A model generated the notes under the pieces. It saw nothing but the letters and a program-made list of their open reading frames with translations. It was not told where the DNA came from and searched no databases. 64,000 bases of DNA. Source: an uncultured Alphaproteobacteria bacterium. Lineage in GTDB: Bacteria; Pseudomonadota; Alphaproteobacteria; Rhizobiales; Hyphomicrobiaceae. The stretch lies in the NCBI GenBank assembly GCA_963812795.1, contig CAWEWG010000002.1, positions 5,340 through 69,339 of the forward strand, given 5' to 3'. Shown one piece after another: positions 45,329 to 53,924 of this stretch. Position 1 is the first letter of the stretch; each line of letters starts with the position of its first letter. The position numbers and the translations under genes are program-made.

Positions 45329-45805
45329 TTATCCGCGGCCCGTCAGGCGTTGATTGATCTCCTGCTGGGTCGGAATTCTTCCGTCGTGCGTCAGCTTGTC
45401 GATCAGCCCCGGCAGGGCTTTCGACAGTTGTGTCAGGAGATCGTCCTGGCTGCATCCGGCCTTGTCGGCCATTTGCGTCACCGCCTTCTTGCCGAGGGCG
45501 TCGCCGAGCTCGTCGGGCTGTACCGGCTTATTCTGACCGGTGCCGACCCATGATTTGACGACGTCATCGAGACCGGCTGCCTGCAGCTGTGCAAGCAATC
45601 CGCCCAACCCGCCGATATCCTGTGCCGCACCGGCTGCCTGCCCCTGTGACGCCTGCGGCATCGAGCCTTGCTGCTGCTGCGGCGGCTGATTACCCGCCTG
45701 CCTGCCCAGGAGGAGTTCCTGGAACACCGCTACCAGCGGCTGATTTCCGCTGCTTCCCTGGCCGCCTTGCGTGAACTGTTTCAGCGCTTCATCGAGCAGT
45801 CCCAT
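45329..45805 (-). CDS. YidB/DUF937-family protein
   Basis: MGLLDEALKQF...GGLGGLLAQLQAAGLDDVVKSWVGTGQNKPVQPDELGDALG...LLTQLSKALPGLIDKLT. Confidence 0.8.
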   Translation of the reverse strand: MGLLDEALKQFTQGGQGSSGNQPLVAVFQELLLGRQAGNQPPQQQQGSMPQASQGQAAGAAQDIGGLGGLLAQLQAAGLDDVVKSWVGTGQNKPVQPDELGDALGKKAVTQMADKAGCSQDDLLTQLSKALPGLIDKLTHDGRIPTQQEINQRLTGRG

Positions 45806-45841: not shown

Positions 45842-46603
45842 TTACTGCTGGCTTAGTCTCTTGTTGCACTCGCTGTAGTAGCCGCCGCCTTCCTCGGTCC
45901 ACCTGGGCTCGGTGATGCCGGCAGCCTTGTTGGCGCGGTATTGGTCGCGACACGTCAGCATCCGCGCCTTGCCGGCCGGCTGGCGCGCGTACTTCTTGGC
46001 TATGCCCGACGGGAAGAGCGATCCCATCGTCGGCAGCATGCTGCCGCTCTTCTTGGCGATGGCGGTCGGGCATCCGGCGGAACGGAACTCGTTCCACGTC
46101 ATGGCACCGAGCGTGCCGGCTGACTTTGCCGCCTGGTAGCGCGCGCTGCATTCCTGCTGGCTTACGGTCGTGGCTTCAGCGGCGGGTGCGAGACGTGAAG
46201 TTTCCTTCTTGATCGCTGGTTTTGGAGCGGCCGCCGTTTTGGCCACGCAGCCGGCCTTGCGGAACTCGTTCCAGCTCATGCCCTCGAGCGTTCCGGCCTC
46301 CTTCGCCGCTTTGAAGCTGGCGCTGCATTCCTGCATGCTGGGCCCCGCGGCAGCTGCCGTCGGTGCGATCTTATCGGGCTTGGTCGTTTCCGTCTTGACC
46401 TTCTTGAGCGCCATCGTGGCGCCCTCGCCGCACTCCGCCTTGCGGAAGTCGTTCCAGCTCATCGTGCCGACCGAGCCGGCATCGTTGGCGGTTTTGTATT
46501 TCTCGCTGCATTGCTTCATCGTCAGCGCGCTCGCCGGCTGCGCGATTGCGAACGCCGCGAGCGCCGCCACGCCCGCCAACATTCCGTGGGCTCTCTTCGA
46601 CAT
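45842..46603 (-). CDS. Exported protein with four PsiF-like Cys-bracketed repeats
   Basis: Signal peptide MSKRAHGMLAGVAALAAFAIAQPASA. Three repeats of C-x25-C (CSEKYKTANDAG...WNDFRKAEC; CSASFKAAKEAG...WNEFRKAGC; CSARYQAAKSAG...WNEFRSAGC) and a fourth C-x27-C. Confidence 0.7.
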   Translation of the reverse strand: MSKRAHGMLAGVAALAAFAIAQPASALTMKQCSEKYKTANDAGSVGTMSWNDFRKAECGEGATMALKKVKTETTKPDKIAPTAAAAGPSMQECSASFKAAKEAGTLEGMSWNEFRKAGCVAKTAAAPKPAIKKETSRLAPAAEATTVSQQECSARYQAAKSAGTLGAMTWNEFRSAGCPTAIAKKSGSMLPTMGSLFPSGIAKKYARQPAGKARMLTCRDQYRANKAAGITEPRWTEEGGGYYSECNKRLSQQ

Positions 46604-46828
46604 TACGACCTCGCTCATTGCTTGAGAAGCATGAACACTGATCACCCGCGGCTTGCGCGAAGCAACGAAAGTCCGGGGACAGGCTTTATCTTTGGCGAAC
46701 GAAACGCAGACCTTTTTATCGCTCGTGCAATACCGCGCCGCGTACGCAGGATGGCTCAGTCGCGTGCAGCGGCTGAGCCGTGATTTGTCTGTGATAGGCG
46801 CGCGAAATCGTCAGCGCGCGATGCCGTG

Positions 46829-49651
46829 CTAGTAGCCGAAGCTCTGTCGGAAAATGTCGTTGGCCGACGAGCCTCGACTGACGACGCGCTGGCTGTCGCC
46901 ACCGTCGCCACCGCCAACATATCCCCCGCTGACAACGCGCCGGCCGCTACGGCGTGCCTTGGCCCGTCCGGTGCTCTCGGCATCGTTCAGCCGCTGCGCC
47001 AATTCCACCTGAGCCAGGTGATCGGTACCCTTGTTGATGGAGTCCCACTTGCCTTCCAACGCCTGAGTGATGCGCTTTTCGTGGCCGTAGACGTCCTTCT
47101 CGGTAGTCACGTCACCGCTGTCGTCGACCTGCGCGGTGAAATACGTGATGTGTACCGGAATGTGATGGTTGAGCGGCACGCCGAGCTCCTCCGGCTCGCC
47201 GTCGAGAAGCTCGTCGACCTCCTTGACGCTCCAGCCCTTGTCGATGCCGAGCAGCGTTTCGGCGAGCCGCTGCGGGTTCTTCACGCGCACGCAGCCATGG
47301 CTGAAGGTGCGCTCCGACGCGCTGAACAGGCCCTTGCTCTGAGTGTCGTGCATGTAGACGGAGTGCTTGTTCGGAAACGTGAACTTCATGCGCCCCAGGG
47401 CGTTGCCCGGACCCGACGGCTGATAGACGTCGTAGTTGCGGATGTCGGCCGTGCCCCAGTTGACGCTGCTGGCCTTCACCTCGCGGCCGTTGCGCACGAG
47501 CTTCATGCCCTGGCGATGGAAGTATCCGCCGCCGCGAGCAAGGCTGGGGAGTATCTCCTTCACCTTGATGCTTTCAGGAACGTTCCAGCGCGGGTGGAAA
47601 TAGATGGTCTCCAGATCCTGCGAGAAGATGGGCGTCTGCTTGTCCAATTCGCCGACGATCACCCGCTCCGAGTGCACCACCTGCCCGTGGTCGATGACGC
47701 TCACGGTATATTCGGGCACGTTCACCCAGACGTACGTATCACCGAGATCCTGCGGCATCCAACGCCACTGCTCCATGTTGGCGAGCAGCGTGGCGGGCGA
47801 GACTTGCTTACCCTCGTTGAGGGCGCGGCGCGTCTTGGCGTTGATGACGCCGTTGGCGGGAGTGATGTCGCGCTTCTCCTGGAAGGCCTTCACCACCTCG
47901 GCCAACTCGTCGTCATACACTTCAATCGCACCGTCGACGGCGTGAACGCCGAGGCGCTCGCGCACGAGTGCGATGTCCTTGTGCGTCGTTCCCGGGTAGA
48001 GCTTCGAGCCTTTCGTCGGGATGGTGACAATCGTATTCAAGCCACCGTCGCGGTGTGCCAGATACTGCTGACGCAGCTTTTCGAATTGCGCATGCTGGGG
48101 ATGCAGTGTGCGCAGGTACTCGCCGGGAGCGTTGCTGGCGGCGAGCTGCTCCATCACCAACAGTGGATGACGCAGCGTCGGCTTGCGGTCGAGGTAGGAG
48201 CTGAGCTGCGTCGCCGGATCCTCGATGCGGCCGCCGCGCGCATAGCGTGCGTATTTGAGGGCGGCGAGCGAAAGCCCGAGTTCGGCGTTGACGAGAGCGT
48301 TTTCCGACGGTGGTGCGCCGGGCGCCTGCTTAGCGAGCACGGGTATCTCGAAGGCGCTCGCCTGCAGGCCCCAGTCGTCGGCGCGCTTGATCTCCTCGTT
48401 GGCGGCGACGGCCTTTGGCGTCCAACCGTTCTTATCGACCCACACCGGCTCGGTACGCGCGGCATAGAACATCCACAGCCCGTCGCGGTCGGCCTGCGTC
48501 GTGCCTTCTGGAAGCGGCGCCAGAAGCTTGCGGCGGACCGACAGCAGCAGCGGTTGCTCGGATGCCATGAAGGCCGGGGGCGCGGGCGGCTCGACGGGTG
48601 CGGCTGTCGCCGGGGCGACGAAGTTTATGCCCAGCGTCAGCCCGGTGAAAAGTGTCGCGACACTGACGGCGGGTTTGAACACGGGTTTCTTCTCGGGCTT
48701 GGGAGGCATCGGGGTGCTCTCTGCTGCAACGGGTTCAAGTTGGGCGCGGTGGGCTTCCTCCGGCGTCAGCACGCCGGCGGCAGTGACGGTCTTGAGGACG
48801 AAATTGCGCGCACGCAGCGCCGCCGCGGCGTCGCGATCGATACGCCGCGCTTCCGGCGCCTGCGGCAGCGCCACCAGAAGTGCCGCCTCGGCATCGGAAA
48901 GCTTGCGCGGCTCCTTGCCGAAGTATCTGAGAGAGGCAGCGCGCACGCCTTTGACGCGCCCGCCGAAGGGGGCGAGGGCGAGGTAGAGCCCGAGGATCTG
49001 TTGCTTGCTGAGCTGCCGCTCGAGCTGGAACGCGCGGATGATCTGGCGCAGCTTTACCGATGGCGTACGCTGGTATTGATTGTCGAGCAGCCGCGCGACC
49101 TGCATGGTCAGCGTGGAGCCGCCACTGACGATGCGTTGTTTCAAGATGAGATCGCGGGCGGCGCGGGCGATGCCGAAGGGGTCTACCCCGATGTGCGAGT
49201 AGAAGCGTCGATCCTCGAAGGCGAACAGCATGGCGAGGTAGCGCGGATCGACGTGCTCGGGGGCCAGGACGACCGGGGCAAGGTCCGACTGTTGGGCCGC
49301 ACGGTGCTGGGCGGATCCGGGAAGAAGGTAAGCAACGCTCTGCAGCGGCGGCGGCCCCAGCTGCGCCATGGCGACCTGCAGCCCGACCTGCACGATGAGC
49401 GCGAGAGAGGCGCCGGCAAACGCGGCAAAGGCGACGTACCGACCGATGCGCTGGAGCACAGCCGGCCGGCGTACGCGGCCGGCTTCCGCATTTGCGCTGG
49501 CTGCCCCGGCAACCGCCTCAAGTCGGGAGCGCCTCTGCGCGGCGCCTCCGTCTTTTGGGCTCGACATTGCGTCCTCGCCGACCGCTTCCACCCGGGCCCC
49601 CTCATGTCCGGGCCCCTCGCCGCGACGCTCTCCCGCGGCAAGTTTCGGCAT
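46829..49651 (-). CDS. Chimeric GT51 peptidoglycan glycosyltransferase / YcbB-type L,D-transpeptidase ORF
   Basis: N-terminal TM anchor. GT51 motifs EDRRFYSHIGVD, GGSTLTMQ, RAFQLE, LRYFGKEP and LPQAP. An internal signal-peptide-like segment starts at codon 316. PG-binding repeat (VRERLG...VVKAFQEKRDITPANGVINAKTRRAL). YkuD catalytic motif HSVYMHDT...SHGCVRV. There is no in-frame stop over 941 codons. Confidence 0.8.
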   Translation of the reverse strand: MPKLAAGERRGEGPGHEGARVEAVGEDAMSSPKDGGAAQRRSRLEAVAGAASANAEAGRVRRPAVLQRIGRYVAFAAFAGASLALIVQVGLQVAMAQLGPPPLQSVAYLLPGSAQHRAAQQSDLAPVVLAPEHVDPRYLAMLFAFEDRRFYSHIGVDPFGIARAARDLILKQRIVSGGSTLTMQVARLLDNQYQRTPSVKLRQIIRAFQLERQLSKQQILGLYLALAPFGGRVKGVRAASLRYFGKEPRKLSDAEAALLVALPQAPEARRIDRDAAAALRARNFVLKTVTAAGVLTPEEAHRAQLEPVAAESTPMPPKPEKKPVFKPAVSVATLFTGLTLGINFVAPATAAPVEPPAPPAFMASEQPLLLSVRRKLLAPLPEGTTQADRDGLWMFYAARTEPVWVDKNGWTPKAVAANEEIKRADDWGLQASAFEIPVLAKQAPGAPPSENALVNAELGLSLAALKYARYARGGRIEDPATQLSSYLDRKPTLRHPLLVMEQLAASNAPGEYLRTLHPQHAQFEKLRQQYLAHRDGGLNTIVTIPTKGSKLYPGTTHKDIALVRERLGVHAVDGAIEVYDDELAEVVKAFQEKRDITPANGVINAKTRRALNEGKQVSPATLLANMEQWRWMPQDLGDTYVWVNVPEYTVSVIDHGQVVHSERVIVGELDKQTPIFSQDLETIYFHPRWNVPESIKVKEILPSLARGGGYFHRQGMKLVRNGREVKASSVNWGTADIRNYDVYQPSGPGNALGRMKFTFPNKHSVYMHDTQSKGLFSASERTFSHGCVRVKNPQRLAETLLGIDKGWSVKEVDELLDGEPEELGVPLNHHIPVHITYFTAQVDDSGDVTTEKDVYGHEKRITQALEGKWDSINKGTDHLAQVELAQRLNDAESTGRAKARRSGRRVVSGGYVGGGDGGDSQRVVSRGSSANDIFRQSFGY

Positions 49652-49833
49652 CAACGACGATGAACTGAACGATCACAACCAAAACCACCGAACCATGTTT
49701 ACCGGTTACGAATGTGGTCTGAGCGATTTGAATCTTCCCGACGGCAACGCGGAATAACTGTTTCTGCCGGTCTGATTGGAATGCGCGCGGGTTCGTGCCG
49801 GCGATGGCCGAAGCAGGCTGGCTATTTGGGAAG

Positions 49834-50727
49834 TCAGGGGGTCTGTTTGGCGAGGTGATCGAGCGCGCCGCGCAACTGGCCGCCGACTTCTTCGAGTGCT
49901 GCCGTCGCATCGGACAGGTCGTAGCCCTGCAGCAGCAGGACGGCGAGCTTGACGCTGCCGTTCGACCGCTCGAGGGCTTCGCGCACCTGCGGATGGCTTT
50001 GACCGGTGAGTTCGGCAACCATCTTCTCGCGCCGCTTGGCCAGTTTGGCGTTGCTGGCCTGCACCTCGACCATCATGCCGCGGTAGATGCGCCCGAGGCG
50101 GATCATCACCAGCGTCGACAGCAGATTGAGCGTGATGCGTTGGGCCGTACCGGCGTTCATGCGGGTTGAGCCGGCAATCGGCTCGGGACCCGTCGCCAGC
50201 AGGATTGGATGATCGGCGTCGACGAGCAGCGGTGTGCCGGCGTTGTTGGCGATGCCGATCGTCAGGCAGCCGCGACGACGCGCTTCGCGCATACAAGTCA
50301 AGGTGAACGGCGTTGTTCCGCTCGCCGCCGTGGCGATGAGGACATCGGTGGCATCGACGCCGTGCTCTTCAATGAGCTCGGCAGCACGTTCGACATCGTC
50401 CTCGGCGCCCTCGACGGCCTGCGTCATCGCCTCCTCGCCACCGGCCAGCAGCAGCAATAACCGGTCGGGCGGCCAACTGAAGGTCGGCATCAGCTCGGCG
50501 CCATCCTGCACGGCGAGCCGCCCCGAGGTGCCGGCGCCGACATAAATGAGGCGTCCGCGCCGACGCAGCCTTGCCTCGATGGCGAGAGCTGCCTCCTCGA
50601 TGGCCGACGCCGCAGTGCGGACTGCCGCCACGGAAGCCAATTGCCCCTCGATCATCGCATCCAGGATGTCGCCCGGCTGCCAGAGCTCGATGTCCGCGTA
50701 GCGGGGGCTTAACCGTTCCGTATTCAT
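49834..50727 (-). CDS. murQ: N-acetylmuramic acid 6-phosphate etherase
   Basis: SIS-domain etherase pattern: RLIYVGAGTSGRL...ASGTTPF...GSTRMNAGTAQRITLNLLST, plus the C-terminal UBA-like tail. Confidence 0.88.
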   Translation of the reverse strand: MNTERLSPRYADIELWQPGDILDAMIEGQLASVAAVRTAASAIEEAALAIEARLRRRGRLIYVGAGTSGRLAVQDGAELMPTFSWPPDRLLLLLAGGEEAMTQAVEGAEDDVERAAELIEEHGVDATDVLIATAASGTTPFTLTCMREARRRGCLTIGIANNAGTPLLVDADHPILLATGPEPIAGSTRMNAGTAQRITLNLLSTLVMIRLGRIYRGMMVEVQASNAKLAKRREKMVAELTGQSHPQVREALERSNGSVKLAVLLLQGYDLSDATAALEEVGGQLRGALDHLAKQTP

Positions 50728-50788
50728 GGGGGCAGCGTTGGCACTAAGTCATTTCCGCTACGTTTATAGTGATGTCTACCTAACGTAG

Positions 50789-51712
50789 ATGTTCAGGAAC
50801 ATGCAGCCAATGGTCAGGACGGCATTACTTCTTGGTATAGATGGGGGCGGAACCGCTTGCCGCGCCCGCCTGGCCGACCTCAACGGCGATATCCGCGGTG
50901 AGGCGACCGCCGGTCCCGCCAACATTCGTTTCGGCATTAAGGAGAGCTTTGCGCAGGTACTGCGGGCGACCGACGAGGCGCTGGCGCAAGCCGGGCTGGC
51001 GCTCGAGGACGCCGATATCGTCGCCTGCCTGGCGCTGGCCGGCGCCAGCGAGCCGACGCACCTTGCCGCCGCACGCGCTTTTCAGCTTCCGTTCCGCCGC
51101 GCGATCTTCACCACCGATGCGCACGCCGCCTGCGTCGGCGCGCACGGCGGCGAGGACGGGGGCATTATCATCGTCGGCACGGGTAGCATCGGCTGGGGCC
51201 TCGTCGGTGGGCGCGAATACCGTGTGGGCGGATGGGGCTTTCCCGTCTCCGACGAAGGCAGCGGCGCATGGATCGGCTGCGAGGTGGCCCGCCGCGTGCT
51301 GTGGGCATACGACGGCCGCAGACCGTGGAGCGGCCTCTTGAAAAAGGTGCTGGAGCGTTTCGACGGCGATCCGCACGTCATCGTCCGCTGGATGGGCGCG
51401 GCGCGACCGCGCGACTTTGCCTCGCTGGCGCCGCTGGTGATCGAGTATGCTGGACGCGACGACGCGGTGGCACACGAGCTGATGCGCGAGGCCGCGGCGC
51501 AGATCGACGTGCTCGCCCAGCGATTGGCGGTGTTGGGCGTGCCGCAACTGGCGCTTGCCGGCGGCCTCGCCAAGAGCATGGAGCCATGGCTGGCGGCGAC
51601 GACGCAGGAGCATCTCGTCATACCGAGAGGGGATGCATTGAGCGGGGCGCTGCACATGGCACGCGACGAAGCTGAACGATTGGCGCTGGCGCGGTCGGCG
51701 GTCAATCATTGA
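50789..51712 (+). CDS. nagK: N-acetylglucosamine kinase (BadF/BadG/BcrA/BcrD ATPase family)
   Basis: LLGIDGGGTACRARL, IIVGTGSIG, GGWGFPVSDEGSGAWIG. The start codon is uncertain (50789, 50801 or 50810). Confidence 0.75.
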   Translation: MFRNMQPMVRTALLLGIDGGGTACRARLADLNGDIRGEATAGPANIRFGIKESFAQVLRATDEALAQAGLALEDADIVACLALAGASEPTHLAAARAFQLPFRRAIFTTDAHAACVGAHGGEDGGIIIVGTGSIGWGLVGGREYRVGGWGFPVSDEGSGAWIGCEVARRVLWAYDGRRPWSGLLKKVLERFDGDPHVIVRWMGAARPRDFASLAPLVIEYAGRDDAVAHELMREAAAQIDVLAQRLAVLGVPQLALAGGLAKSMEPWLAATTQEHLVIPRGDALSGALHMARDEAERLALARSAVNH

Positions 51713-51732
51713 AGGGGTCGGCCGGGCGAAGC

Positions 51733-52764
51733 ATGGGCAACGCGAAAGCACAGATGGCGCAAGAGCTGAGCGAGGCGCCACTGGCCATCCGTCGCCAGGC
51801 GGAGGCGCTGGCGCCGCCGCTGTCCGCGCTCGTGCAGCGCCTTGCGCGCAGACCGCCGCAGGTCGTCGTCACCTGCGCCCGCGGCAGCTCGGCGCACGCA
51901 GCGGCATTCGCCAAGCATTTGATCGAGCGCTACGTGGGGATTCCGGTGGCACCTGCGGCGCCGAGCGTCGCCAGCATCTACGGGCAATCGATGCACCTCA
52001 AGGGTCAATTGGTGCTGTCCATCTCGCAGTCCGGACGTAGCGACGATCTCATCGCCTTCACGAAGAGTGCCAAGGATGCCGGTGCCATCACCGTCGCCGT
52101 CGTCAACGTCACGGATTCGCCGCTGGCCGAGACGTGCGATTTCGTCTTGCCGATTTGCGCCGGACCCGAGCTGAGCGTGGCGGCGACGAAGACGTTCATT
52201 GCCACGGTGGCGGCGCTTGCGAGGCTCACGGCGGCCTGGGCCGACGAGCGCACGCTGACGGAGGCCATCGCGCGATTGCCGGACCGGTTGGTCGACGCCG
52301 CGGCGCTGGATTGGAGCGCGGCGGTGCCGGCGGTTGCCAACGCGGCAAGTCTGGTGACCATCGGGCGCGGCTCGACGCTGGCGATCGCGCGTGAAGCCGC
52401 GCTCAAATTGAAGGAGACGTGCAATCGCCACGCCGAAGCCTTCAGCGGCGCGGAATTCCTGCACGGCCCGGTTTCGCTCGTGTCCTCGCGCTACCCGATC
52501 CTGATGTTCATGCCGACGGACGCCGCGGCGCCGGGCATGCGTCAGCTCGCCGGCGAGTTGCGTCGCATGGGCACGGCCTTGTTCATCGCCGAGCATGGCG
52601 AGGGTGCCCCCAACCGGCTGCCGACGTTGCCCCCCGATCAACCGGAGACCGATGCGATCTGTCTCATCCAGAGCTTCTACGCCCTGGCCGTCGATGTCGC
52701 CCAGCACCTCGACATCGACGTCGACAAGCCGCGGCATCTCAGCAAAGTGACCAGCACGCTATGA
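51733..52764 (+). CDS. SIS-domain sugar-phosphate isomerase/deaminase (AgaS/GlmS-C-like)
   Basis: Two SIS repeats (VVTCARGSSAHAA...SQSGRSDD; VTIGRGSTLAIAREAALKLKE...EFLHGP). The stop overlaps the nagA start (ATGA). Confidence 0.8.
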   Translation: MGNAKAQMAQELSEAPLAIRRQAEALAPPLSALVQRLARRPPQVVVTCARGSSAHAAAFAKHLIERYVGIPVAPAAPSVASIYGQSMHLKGQLVLSISQSGRSDDLIAFTKSAKDAGAITVAVVNVTDSPLAETCDFVLPICAGPELSVAATKTFIATVAALARLTAAWADERTLTEAIARLPDRLVDAAALDWSAAVPAVANAASLVTIGRGSTLAIAREAALKLKETCNRHAEAFSGAEFLHGPVSLVSSRYPILMFMPTDAAAPGMRQLAGELRRMGTALFIAEHGEGAPNRLPTLPPDQPETDAICLIQSFYALAVDVAQHLDIDVDKPRHLSKVTSTL

Positions 52765-53924
52765 GCGGAACGAACGGATCCGGTGCCCACGCCGTCGCCG
52801 CAAGCTGCATCTTCGACGGCGTCGCCGTCGTGCGCGACAGCGCCGTCATCATCGAGGGTGCGCATATCGTCGACGTGAAGCCGTTCGGTGACGTTCCCGC
52901 CTCGATGCCCGTACGCGTGCTCCCGGGCGAATCCTGGCTCGCGCCCGGGTTCATCGACGTGCAGGTCAACGGCGGTGGCGACGTGCTGTTCAACGACACG
53001 CCGACGGTGGAGGGCATCAACGCCATTGCCGCCGCGCATCGCCGCTTCGGCACTACGGGCCTATTGCCGACGCTGATCAGCGACACGTATGACAAGACCC
53101 GCACCGCCATGCATGCCGCGCAGAAAGCCGCTACCGGGAATCCAAGCGTGCTCGGCATCCACATCGAAGGACCGTTCTTGTCGCCGGAGAAGCGCGGCGT
53201 GCACGACGCGGACCTGTTCCGCAAACCCGAGGCGCGCGATTTGGAGCTGCTGACGTCGTGGCCGGCAGGTGCCGTGCTGGTGACGCTGGCGCCCGAGCGC
53301 GTGCCGGAAGGCTTCATCGCCGAGCTGGCGCGGTGCGGCGTTAAAGTTTCCCTCGGCCATTCGATGGCGACGTATGCCGAAACCAAGGCCGCGCTCGCCG
53401 ACGGGCTGACCGGCTTCACGCACCTGTTCAATGCGATGCGCCCGCTCGGCAGCCGCGATCCAGGGCCGATCGCCGCCGCGTTGGAATCGCCCTGCGCCTA
53501 CATCGGCATGATCGTCGACGGCGAGCACGTTTCGGCGGAAATGCTGCGCCTCGCTCTGCGCGGCGAGGGGCGGCCGATGTTGGTGACAGATGCGATGCCC
53601 CCGGTCGGCGGGCGCAAGCAGAGCTTCACGCTCTATGGGGAAGAGATGAGCGTGCGCGACGGACGCTGCACCAGGGCCGATGGTACGCTCGCCGGCGCGG
53701 CGCTGGATATGGCCACTGCGGTACGCAACACCGTGCGCGACTTGGGCGTGCCGCTGACGAGCGCGCTGCGTTTTGCCTCGACCGAGCCGGCCGAGTTTCT
53801 TGGCCTCGGCACGATCCTCGGACGTCTGGCGCCGGCCTTCCGCGCCGACATGGTGGCCTTCGACCCCGAGAGCATCGAAGTGCTCGACACTTGGGTCGCC
53901 GGCCAGCCTGCCGACAAGAAGTAG
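52761..53924 (+). CDS. nagA: N-acetylglucosamine-6-phosphate deacetylase
   Basis: The ATG at 52761 overlaps the upstream stop. Motifs: GFIDVQVNGGG, GIHIEGPF, HLFNAM, VTDAM. Confidence 0.88.
   Translation: MSGTNGSGAHAVAASCIFDGVAVVRDSAVIIEGAHIVDVKPFGDVPASMPVRVLPGESWLAPGFIDVQVNGGGDVLFNDTPTVEGINAIAAAHRRFGTTGLLPTLISDTYDKTRTAMHAAQKAATGNPSVLGIHIEGPFLSPEKRGVHDADLFRKPEARDLELLTSWPAGAVLVTLAPERVPEGFIAELARCGVKVSLGHSMATYAETKAALADGLTGFTHLFNAMRPLGSRDPGPIAAALESPCAYIGMIVDGEHVSAEMLRLALRGEGRPMLVTDAMPPVGGRKQSFTLYGEEMSVRDGRCTRADGTLAGAALDMATAVRNTVRDLGVPLTSALRFASTEPAEFLGLGTILGRLAPAFRADMVAFDPESIEVLDTWVAGQPADKK

Follow-up and report, generated by a model that had tools for sequence, protein, structure and literature searches.

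L,D-transpeptidases (LDTs) are usually viewed as accessory enzymes which act on a peptidoglycan wall built by penicillin-binding proteins (PBPs). In the beta-lactam bypass of Escherichia coli, LdtD (YcbB) depends on the PBP1b glycosyltransferase, which it has to recruit in trans (PMC5089857, PMC6478713); YcbB needs PBP5 in addition to this glycosyltransferase (PMC5089857) and binds PBP1b with a Kd of 250 nM (PMC6478713). YcbB itself is a soluble periplasmic protein, which has its own N-terminal signal peptide and neither a membrane tether nor a glycosyltransferase domain (PMC5089857, PMC6478713), and the LDTs that are held at the membrane include the transmembrane-anchored Ldtfm of E. faecium and the LdtMt lipoproteins of mycobacteria (PMC6478713). 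Here we describe a gene in which the two activities appear to be joined in a single polypeptide. It lies at 46829..49654 on the minus strand of a 64,000-nucleotide stretch of DNA (the window) from an uncultured alphaproteobacterium of the Hyphomicrobiaceae (assembly GCA_963812795.1, contig CAWEWG010000002.1, positions 5,340 to 69,339), and the encoded protein consists of an N-terminal membrane anchor, a PBP1C-derived glycosyltransferase module of family GT51 and a complete YcbB/LdtD-type LDT with scaffold, probable peptidoglycan-binding and YkuD domains. All parts of the gene named below are on the minus strand.

An earlier note on this stretch had read the locus as an uninterrupted frame of 941 codons that carries an anchor, a GT51 domain, a PBP1C-like linker and a full YcbB-type LDT. 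This domain reading agrees with Pfam, NCBIfam and the PDB, and the open frame, all motifs quoted in its favour and the ATG of codon 316 (48709-48707) are found in the translation. The motifs are FEDRRFYSHIGVD at residues 146-158, GGSTLTMQ at 178-185, RAFQLE at 207-212, LRYFGKEP at 242-249, LPQAP at 263-267, RARNFVL...EPV at 281-309 and SHGCVRV at 785-791. The frame opens with a TTG and ends with a stop at 46829-46831; while it is indeed uninterrupted, translation probably starts not at the TTG but at M30 (ATG 49567-49565), given the GAGGA Shine-Dalgarno sequence in front of this codon (49576-49572; 49565..49576 with the ATG) and a predicted length of about 912 amino acids, which matches that of the homologs (905-930 amino acids, beginning with MSSP...). 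The duplex of the M30 Shine-Dalgarno sequence with its complement in the ribosome amounts to -6.5 kcal/mol (8th percentile). An antisense open reading frame of 945 amino acids (46826-49663, plus strand) was rejected as a gene, being a shadow frame typical of GC-rich DNA. In NCBIfam the glycosyltransferase half is closest to PBP_1c (residues 133-317) and the LDT half to PRK10594/YcbB (576-863). Comparison with the PDB matches the former to the GT51 domains of class A PBPs, for instance 2OQO, and yielded no solved structure covering both halves.

The protein begins with an Arg-rich tail followed by a hydrophobic helix at residues ~70-99 (49358..49447; helix 65-99 in an AlphaFold2 model) and by a conserved LGPPPL on its C-terminal side, as in PBP1C, and this anchor is predicted to be oriented N-in/C-out. 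Its sequence is poorly kept, the ratio of nonsynonymous to synonymous substitutions (dN/dS) being 0.4-0.75 for the anchor part. The GT51 domain with its PBP1C-type C-terminal helices extends over residues 132-309 (48728..49261), and support for it from hidden Markov models in the N-terminal third of the protein is strong (Pfam Transgly, PF00912, at 132-290 with 155.4 bits against a cut-off of 27 bits, E 1.4e-45). GT51 enzymes share five conserved motifs, EDxxFxxHxG, GxSTxTQQ, RKxxE, KxxILxxYxN and RRxxVL, which include two catalytic glutamates. The set is recovered here as E147-D-R-R-F..H154.G, GGSTLTMQ, R207..E212, K217..IL..YL and R281-A-R-N-F-V-L, and E147, D148, H154, GGST.TMQ, R207...E212, K217 and R281-A-R...F-x-L are invariant among 21 aligned homologs.

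The likeness to PBP1C is evident from the anchor preceding LGPPPL, from the third motif, which is of the RA.QLE type in both, and from the shared helices RAR.xVL...EP(V/L). Different from PBP1C however, the fusion protein contains neither the transpeptidase domain PF00905 nor BiPBP_C (PF06832), both of which are present in the PBP1C relatives P0083 and P0105, and with the NCBIfam PBP_1c model (TIGR02073) it scores 235.5 as compared to a cut-off of 494.2. In addition, the first ~18 positions of the Transgly profile are replaced by a variable spacer (residues 100-131, 49262..49357): the Transgly match begins at profile position 19-20 in the fused proteins and at 5-10 in PBP1C, and the segment between LGPPPL and VDPRYL varies in both sequence and length among the fused proteins. 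In class A PBPs this early stretch contacts the interdomain linker, so that its decay would fit the loss of the transpeptidase domain. By the missing PF00905 and BiPBP_C domains and by the PBP_1c score the protein is thus placed outside the class A PBPs, although it is predicted to work like one. The monofunctional glycosyltransferases MtgA/Mgt likewise lack a PBP transpeptidase beside their GT51 domain, and the fusion protein matches their model TIGR02070, but with a score of only 83 against a cut-off of 183; it is closer to PBP1C and carries an LDT module of ~590 residues in addition.

The LDT half starts with a helical scaffold domain at residues ~366-540 (48035..48559; Pfam Scaffold PF20142 at 395-530, 78.6 bits against 24.6, E 1e-21), a domain which is unique to the YcbB/LdtD subfamily (PMC6478713). 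It is followed by a probable peptidoglycan-binding domain at residues ~556-613 (47816..47989), which aligns to YcbB structures; the PG_binding_1 match at 578-612 is weak (20.4 bits, cut-off 23 bits), and the homologs P0017 (23.6) and P0028 (27.2) exceed the cut-off. The YkuD catalytic region (47045..47737) is matched by Pfam YkuD (640-801, 79.1 bits against 23.4, E 7e-22), by PRK10594 and by the YcbB structures 7KGM, 7KGN, 6NTW and 7AJ9. Its active-site motif H769-D770 ... S785-H786-G787-C788-V-R (47285..47350) includes H769, D770, S785, H786, G787, C788 and R790, all invariant in the 21 homologs; in E. coli YcbB the catalytic residues are His509 and Cys528 (PMC6478713). The capping sub-domain is present as well and aligns to 7KGM and 7KGN without large gaps over chain residues ~272-566. 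In this sub-domain (residues ~700-750, window ~47400-47560) two length forms occur in the family, a long form 'ARGGGYFHRQGMKLVRNG' and a short form 'ARG----RRRDMVVMRNG' (alignment columns ~770-800). By eye, P0006 with the long cap and P0008/P0009 with the short cap look much alike elsewhere in the alignment, and the two forms would suggest local recombination between alleles.

The fusion protein shares with E. coli LdtD/YcbB (6NTW, 7AJ9) and its relatives (7KGM, 7KGN) the scaffold, probably the peptidoglycan-binding domain, the YkuD domain with a large capping insert and the H...SHGC signature. It differs in that the LDT sits behind a GT51 domain, in that it has an extra conserved C-terminal tail, and in that its PRK10594 score is 203.6 as compared to an equivalog cut-off of 425, with coverage of residues 576-863 only. 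By these scores it is a diverged paralog of the YcbB subfamily and no LdtD equivalog. The C-terminal extension (residues 896-941, 46832..46969) consists of a Gly/Arg/Ser-rich spacer and a tail SSANDIFR(Q/R)SFG(Y/N), in which N932, D933, F935, R936, S938, F939 and G940 are invariant. A short tail of similar kind, ...GDYVQS.LGGF, closes the standalone YcbB relatives from alphaproteobacteria, and the tail of the fusion protein could serve as an amphipathic contact to the membrane or to a partner. In Ldtfm and LdtMt the LDT is held at the membrane, as we propose for the fusion protein, but the tether is a plain helix or a lipid and no second enzyme, and the catalytic modules lack the YcbB scaffold.

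A homolog search across 5.8 billion protein clusters returned at least 31 full-length clusters with Transgly, Scaffold and YkuD domains at 58-92% identity. The fusion occurs in the cultured Hyphomicrobium album, H. sulfonivorans, Hyphomicrobium sp. D-2 and sp. 1Nfss2.1 (RefSeq), where it is labelled merely as 'transglycosylase domain-containing protein' or 'L,D-transpeptidase family protein'. A stop codon or a frameshift at the junction of the two halves, the pattern that the earlier note had proposed to look for in relatives as the mark of two adjacent genes, was found neither in the 21 aligned homologs nor in 11 orthologous DNA loci, down to 58% identity. In these 11 loci nagA, an SIS gene and a BadF/G-type kinase gene, with the kinase innermost, are divergent from a murQ-like gene, the fusion gene, a gene for a Cys-repeat protein and yidB, and the gene order in the window is the same. 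Rough Nei-Gojobori dN/dS values are 0.10-0.22 for the GT51 domain, 0.13-0.22 for the scaffold and 0.16-0.35 for the peptidoglycan-binding and YkuD domains, as compared to 0.42-0.75 for the N-terminal tail and anchor. The low values in the GT51 and LDT domains indicate that both enzymatic halves are kept by selection. The conserved fusion gene is real, and of this there is hardly any doubt.

The architecture appears to be a single invention, so far seen in Hyphomicrobium and Hyphomicrobiaceae assemblies only. This view is based on an exhaustive HMMER scan of 1.84 billion representative proteins (50% identity clusters), in which both halves were spanned by one sole cluster (P0017) among the best 150 matches and the remaining ones were LDT-only; nine long YcbB homologs with N-terminal extensions are without a Transgly domain. 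Independent GT51-YcbB fusions elsewhere were considered and none was found among these best 150. A scan of a genome collection yielded at least four fused loci. Many metagenome-assembled copies are split into fragments of 200-550 amino acids on long contigs (e.g. P0032), probably as a result of long-read indel errors, and such split copies could mislead automated counts of the architecture.

As to the origin of the two halves, the glycosyltransferase half shares 52-68% identity with PBP1C of Hyphomicrobiaceae, with homology extending from LGPPPL behind the anchor to about residue 316-317, and a canonical pbpC-like GT51 locus (L077) coexists with the fusion on the chromosome of sp. 1Nfss2.1. 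The nearest standalone LDTs are ~53% identical and have ordinary N-terminal signal peptides. Their genes are found in a separate locus, directly upstream of a Peptidase_M15_2/M15_3 gene (7982-9553 in L088, 8001-9548 in L090), a pairing which we take to match that of ldtD and mepK in E. coli. At least one cluster of standalone YcbB proteins contains a protein from a Hyphomicrobium metagenome-assembled genome. From the PBP1C identity, the coexisting pbpC-like locus and the separate standalone YcbB locus we suggest that a duplicate of pbpC kept its anchor and GT51 domain, lost the penicillin-binding transpeptidase and became joined in frame to a paralog of ldtD/ycbB. That the standalone YcbB genes are the unfused precursor at the murQ locus was rejected, as they occupy a different locus. 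In related alphaproteobacterial assemblies the canonical LDT/M15 pair is present in addition to the fused paralog.

The two halves meet in a segment that has the appearance of a signal peptide (residues 316-351, 48602..48709; consensus ES..M-P-P-x-P-x-P-K-P...VAGLFAGLTLGINFVAGPAAA/AP.EP). A Pro/Lys-rich n-region (K319, K322, K323, K327) is followed by a hydrophobic core at 329-348 with an h-region of 16-20 residues, which contains the pattern small-xxx-G338-xxx-G342 and N344, and by A349-x-A351 at positions -3/-1 and then A-P. M316, K323, A333, G338, L341, G342, N344, A349 and A351 are invariant. Read by eye as an N-terminus, the composition is that of a typical Sec (type I) signal peptide, albeit within a long open reading frame. 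The suggestion that this segment is a relic does not hold: its conservation matches that of the catalytic domains (column identity ~0.86, as compared to 0.52-0.65 for the N-terminal anchor; dN/dS 0.06-0.29), and the n-region Lys, residues of the core and the AxA are invariant, which argues that it is a functional element. A search with a profile of the junction alone for an unfused LDT starting with MPP.P.PKP returned seven short fragments and was uninformative, known members of the family being missed too.

Whether the junction crosses or halts in the membrane decides where the LDT would reside. On a crude Hessa scale, insertion of the junction core costs +2.1 to +5.1 kcal/mol (mean ~+3.5) as compared to an average of ~+1.2 kcal/mol for the N-terminal anchors, a difference of ~2.3, and an out-to-in orientation is opposed by the charges on either side of the core (Lys in front, Glu behind). 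Given this weaker hydrophobicity and these charges, it is more likely that the junction passes the translocon and that the LDT module of the full-length protein is periplasmic than that it acts as a stop-transfer sequence.

The other conspicuous property of the junction concerns its coding sequence. The earlier note had raised the possibility that translation also initiates at M316, and this is truly, if indirectly, supported by a conserved signature of codon usage and mRNA structure at codons 300-318 (48701..48757), which resembles that of a gene start, although the Shine-Dalgarno sequence there is weak. The ATG of M316 (48707..48709) encodes Met in all fused homologs examined (21 aligned and 3 further loci). 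At the equivalent position PBP1C has Phe in 36 of 39 sequences, with identical spacing in 29 loci, and because of this exact alignment M316 is not necessarily a start codon handed down from an LDT gene. In 12 of 12 orthologs the 45 nucleotides around the ATG rank among the least-structured 2-13% of in-frame positions and are less structured than synonymous-codon shuffles (mean z +1.07); 53 control positions have a mean z of -0.14, and only the two that adjoin the junction reach +1.07. The G+C content of third codon positions (GC3), averaged over the orthologs, is ~0.82 gene-wide and drops to 0.57-0.66 only at codons ~300-318, as low as at the 5' end of the gene itself. Corrected for amino acids, the deficit is -0.28 at codon 312 (~5 sd; negative in all twelve orthologs), and the 21 lowest GC3 windows of the gene body are all centred on codons 300-323. 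The underlying rare A/T-ending codons are conserved (GAA at E300 and E307, GCA/GCT at A311, CCT at P317, CCA at P318). No such dip was found at the homologous boundary of glycosyltransferase and linker in 29 alphaproteobacterial pbpC genes (GC3 0.75-0.81). Pairwise synonymous-codon identity along the gene, too blunt a measure, gives only a bump of +1 sd at the junction. In its codon and structure properties the patch looks like what is expected of a translation-initiation region inside GC-rich coding sequence. The sequence 'CTTGAAC' (codons 306-308) was tried as the -35 element of a leaderless transcript and rejected, as its spacing to any -10-like hexamer is wrong.

Taken together, we lean with slightly better than even confidence towards an old fusion, so far found only in a Hyphomicrobium clade, that encodes a 3-3 cross-linking synthase, probably together with a free LDT isoform. 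The full-length protein would be held in the inner membrane in N-in/C-out orientation with both catalytic modules in the periplasm. Its GT51 module would polymerise lipid II into glycan strands, while the tethered LDT module would link the new strand to the sacculus by meso-diaminopimelic acid 3-3 cross-links, using tetrapeptide donors that come from the mature wall or are made by a D,D-carboxypeptidase. Such a protein would be an analogue of a class A PBP whose cross-linking step is insensitive to most beta-lactams, and it would do in cis what PBP1b (glycosyltransferase), LdtD and PBP5/6a of E. coli do in trans. The chemistries, read from sequence on the side of the fusion, are the same GT51 and YcbB-type 3-3 reactions; the E. 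coli proteins, however, are separate and stress-induced, whereas here they are combined in one polypeptide with a glycosyltransferase that derives from PBP1C and not from PBP1b. The invariant motifs and the low dN/dS values make it quite likely that both modules are catalytically competent, and their coupling in cis, with both modules in the periplasm, is probable at a lesser degree. Initiation at M316 would give rise to an LDT that is exported by Sec, cleaved by signal peptidase and free in the periplasm. We propose this second product on the basis of the Sec hallmarks at the junction and of the sole start-like codon and structure signature in the gene body, and judge the chance that it exists to be just short of even. 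That one gene gives rise to two cooperating wall enzymes, the tethered GT51-LDT synthase and the free LDT, and thereby gives Hyphomicrobium a self-contained route of peptidoglycan growth escaping most beta-lactams, we put forward more tentatively still.

Several points weigh against this picture. LDTs need tetrapeptide donors, and coupling to nascent pentapeptide strands would therefore require another enzyme or donors from the old wall. On the crude hydrophobicity scale used, some of the N-terminal anchors have values as poor as that of the junction, which could then act as a stop-transfer sequence that leaves the LDT in the cytoplasm. The AlphaFold2 model of the full-length protein (21-sequence alignment; mean predicted local distance difference test score 51, with the junction at 312-364 below 50 and without secondary structure) is too poor to inform topology or domain packing. 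In 10 of the 12 orthologs the predicted duplex with the anti-Shine-Dalgarno sequence upstream of M316 is ordinary at best (-2.2 to -4.0 kcal/mol, 23rd-55th percentile), while those of the N-terminal starts range from -5.9 to -10.9 kcal/mol. A scan for sigma-70 promoters revealed no promoter-like site within the gene, and the twelve orthologs are phylogenetically related, so that counts of 12/12 overstate their independence. Instead of initiation, the rare codons could serve to make ribosomes pause where two domains meet. The core with its invariant G338, L341, G342 and N344 is kept more strictly than a signal peptide would require, which suggests an extra or different role for it.

These points bear on how many products the gene makes and where they go. 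Could it be that there is a single full-length bifunctional product, in which what was once a signal peptide now serves as a membrane-proximal or protein-contact element and the rare codons mark a pause? With its small-xxx-G-xxx-G face, for example, this element could then pack on another protein or on the anchor helix. The weak Shine-Dalgarno sequence, the missing internal promoter and the excess conservation of the core would all be accounted for, and so would the gap-free alignment of M316 with a conserved hydrophobic residue of PBP1C. However, such a product leaves unexplained why Met specifically, the n-region Lys and the AxA are invariant, and the codon and structure signature, which is found mainly at and before the ATG, is like that at the start of the gene itself and is missing at the pbpC boundary. 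We therefore consider a single product rather unlikely. Less probable by far is that the junction is a stop-transfer sequence, the long product a mere GT51 enzyme with an inert cytoplasmic LDT, and M316 the only source of active LDT, the open frame persisting solely because both products share the hydrophobic segment. This would agree with the signal-peptide hallmarks, with the start-like signature at M316 and with a junction hydrophobicity that overlaps the range of the N-terminal anchors. It would also mean that ~590 residues are wasted with each long product, that a segment with a mean insertion energy this unfavourable serves as an anchor against its flanking charges, and that no lineage has split the genes despite divergence to 58% identity.

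There is a negligible probability that the junction arose in sequencing or assembly, or that two ordinary neighbouring genes were recently joined by the pseudogenising loss of a stop codon. The fragmented metagenome-assembled copies might be cited in its support, yet we read them as indel errors, and the same unbroken frame, with a junction that is strongly conserved, is found in isolate genomes and in many independent assemblies. The earlier suggestion of a deletion or stop loss that strands the LDT, taken as a recent accident, is likewise at odds with an old and syntenic fusion in which purifying selection acts on either half. We thus return to the two-module synthase with a candidate internal start as the explanation we prefer.

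The neighbourhood of the gene in the window is that of the related loci. The upstream gene of the SIS/GKRP_SIS_N family (49834..50727, minus strand), which we take to be MurQ-like, is syntenic with the fusion in 11 of 11 related loci and belongs to a conserved cluster of the amino-sugar or cell-wall-recycling type at 49834-53924, in which this gene is on the strand of the fusion and genes for a BadF/G-type kinase, an SIS-domain protein and an Amidohydro_1 (nagA-like) protein are divergent from it. Directly downstream of the fusion, a predicted secreted protein of 267 amino acids (45842-46645, minus strand) has no Pfam match and is made up of 3-4 copies of the Cys repeat C..(Y/F)K.A...G....M(S/T)WN(D/E)FR.A.C; a match to it was detected in 9 of the 11 related loci and remained undetected in 2. 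It is followed by a YidB-like protein (45329-45805, minus strand) in conserved synteny. Between the stop codon of the fusion and the next gene there is a GC-rich hairpin of 13 bp (46751-46781), which is not a canonical intrinsic terminator of the fusion gene as it lacks a T-run on the minus strand.

The note that first drew attention to the gene took its architecture to be undescribed, and no paper on a GT51-LDT fusion turned up in the searchable (non-subscription) literature, including an LDT review of December 2025 and a study of Agrobacterium LDTs of 2024. What is new is the architecture, as far as these sources go; the sequences themselves are already public in RefSeq under their generic names. 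We believe the fusion to be of clear interest to cell-wall specialists, its function being inferred from sequence. By the Rosetta-stone argument, a natural fusion that has been conserved is evidence for an intended coupling of 3-3 cross-linking to glycan polymerisation, and it would offer a single-polypeptide model for addressing in vitro the identity of the stem-peptide donor and the need for a carboxypeptidase. The junction, in turn, provides a test case of a signal peptide buried in a longer secreted protein and of whether bacteria keep such elements as internal starts. If our reading is true, it predicts that a bacterium which buds, forms hyphae and is related to the LDT-rich, polar-growing Hyphomicrobiales (PMC11527210) has a route of wall synthesis that would escape most beta-lactams.

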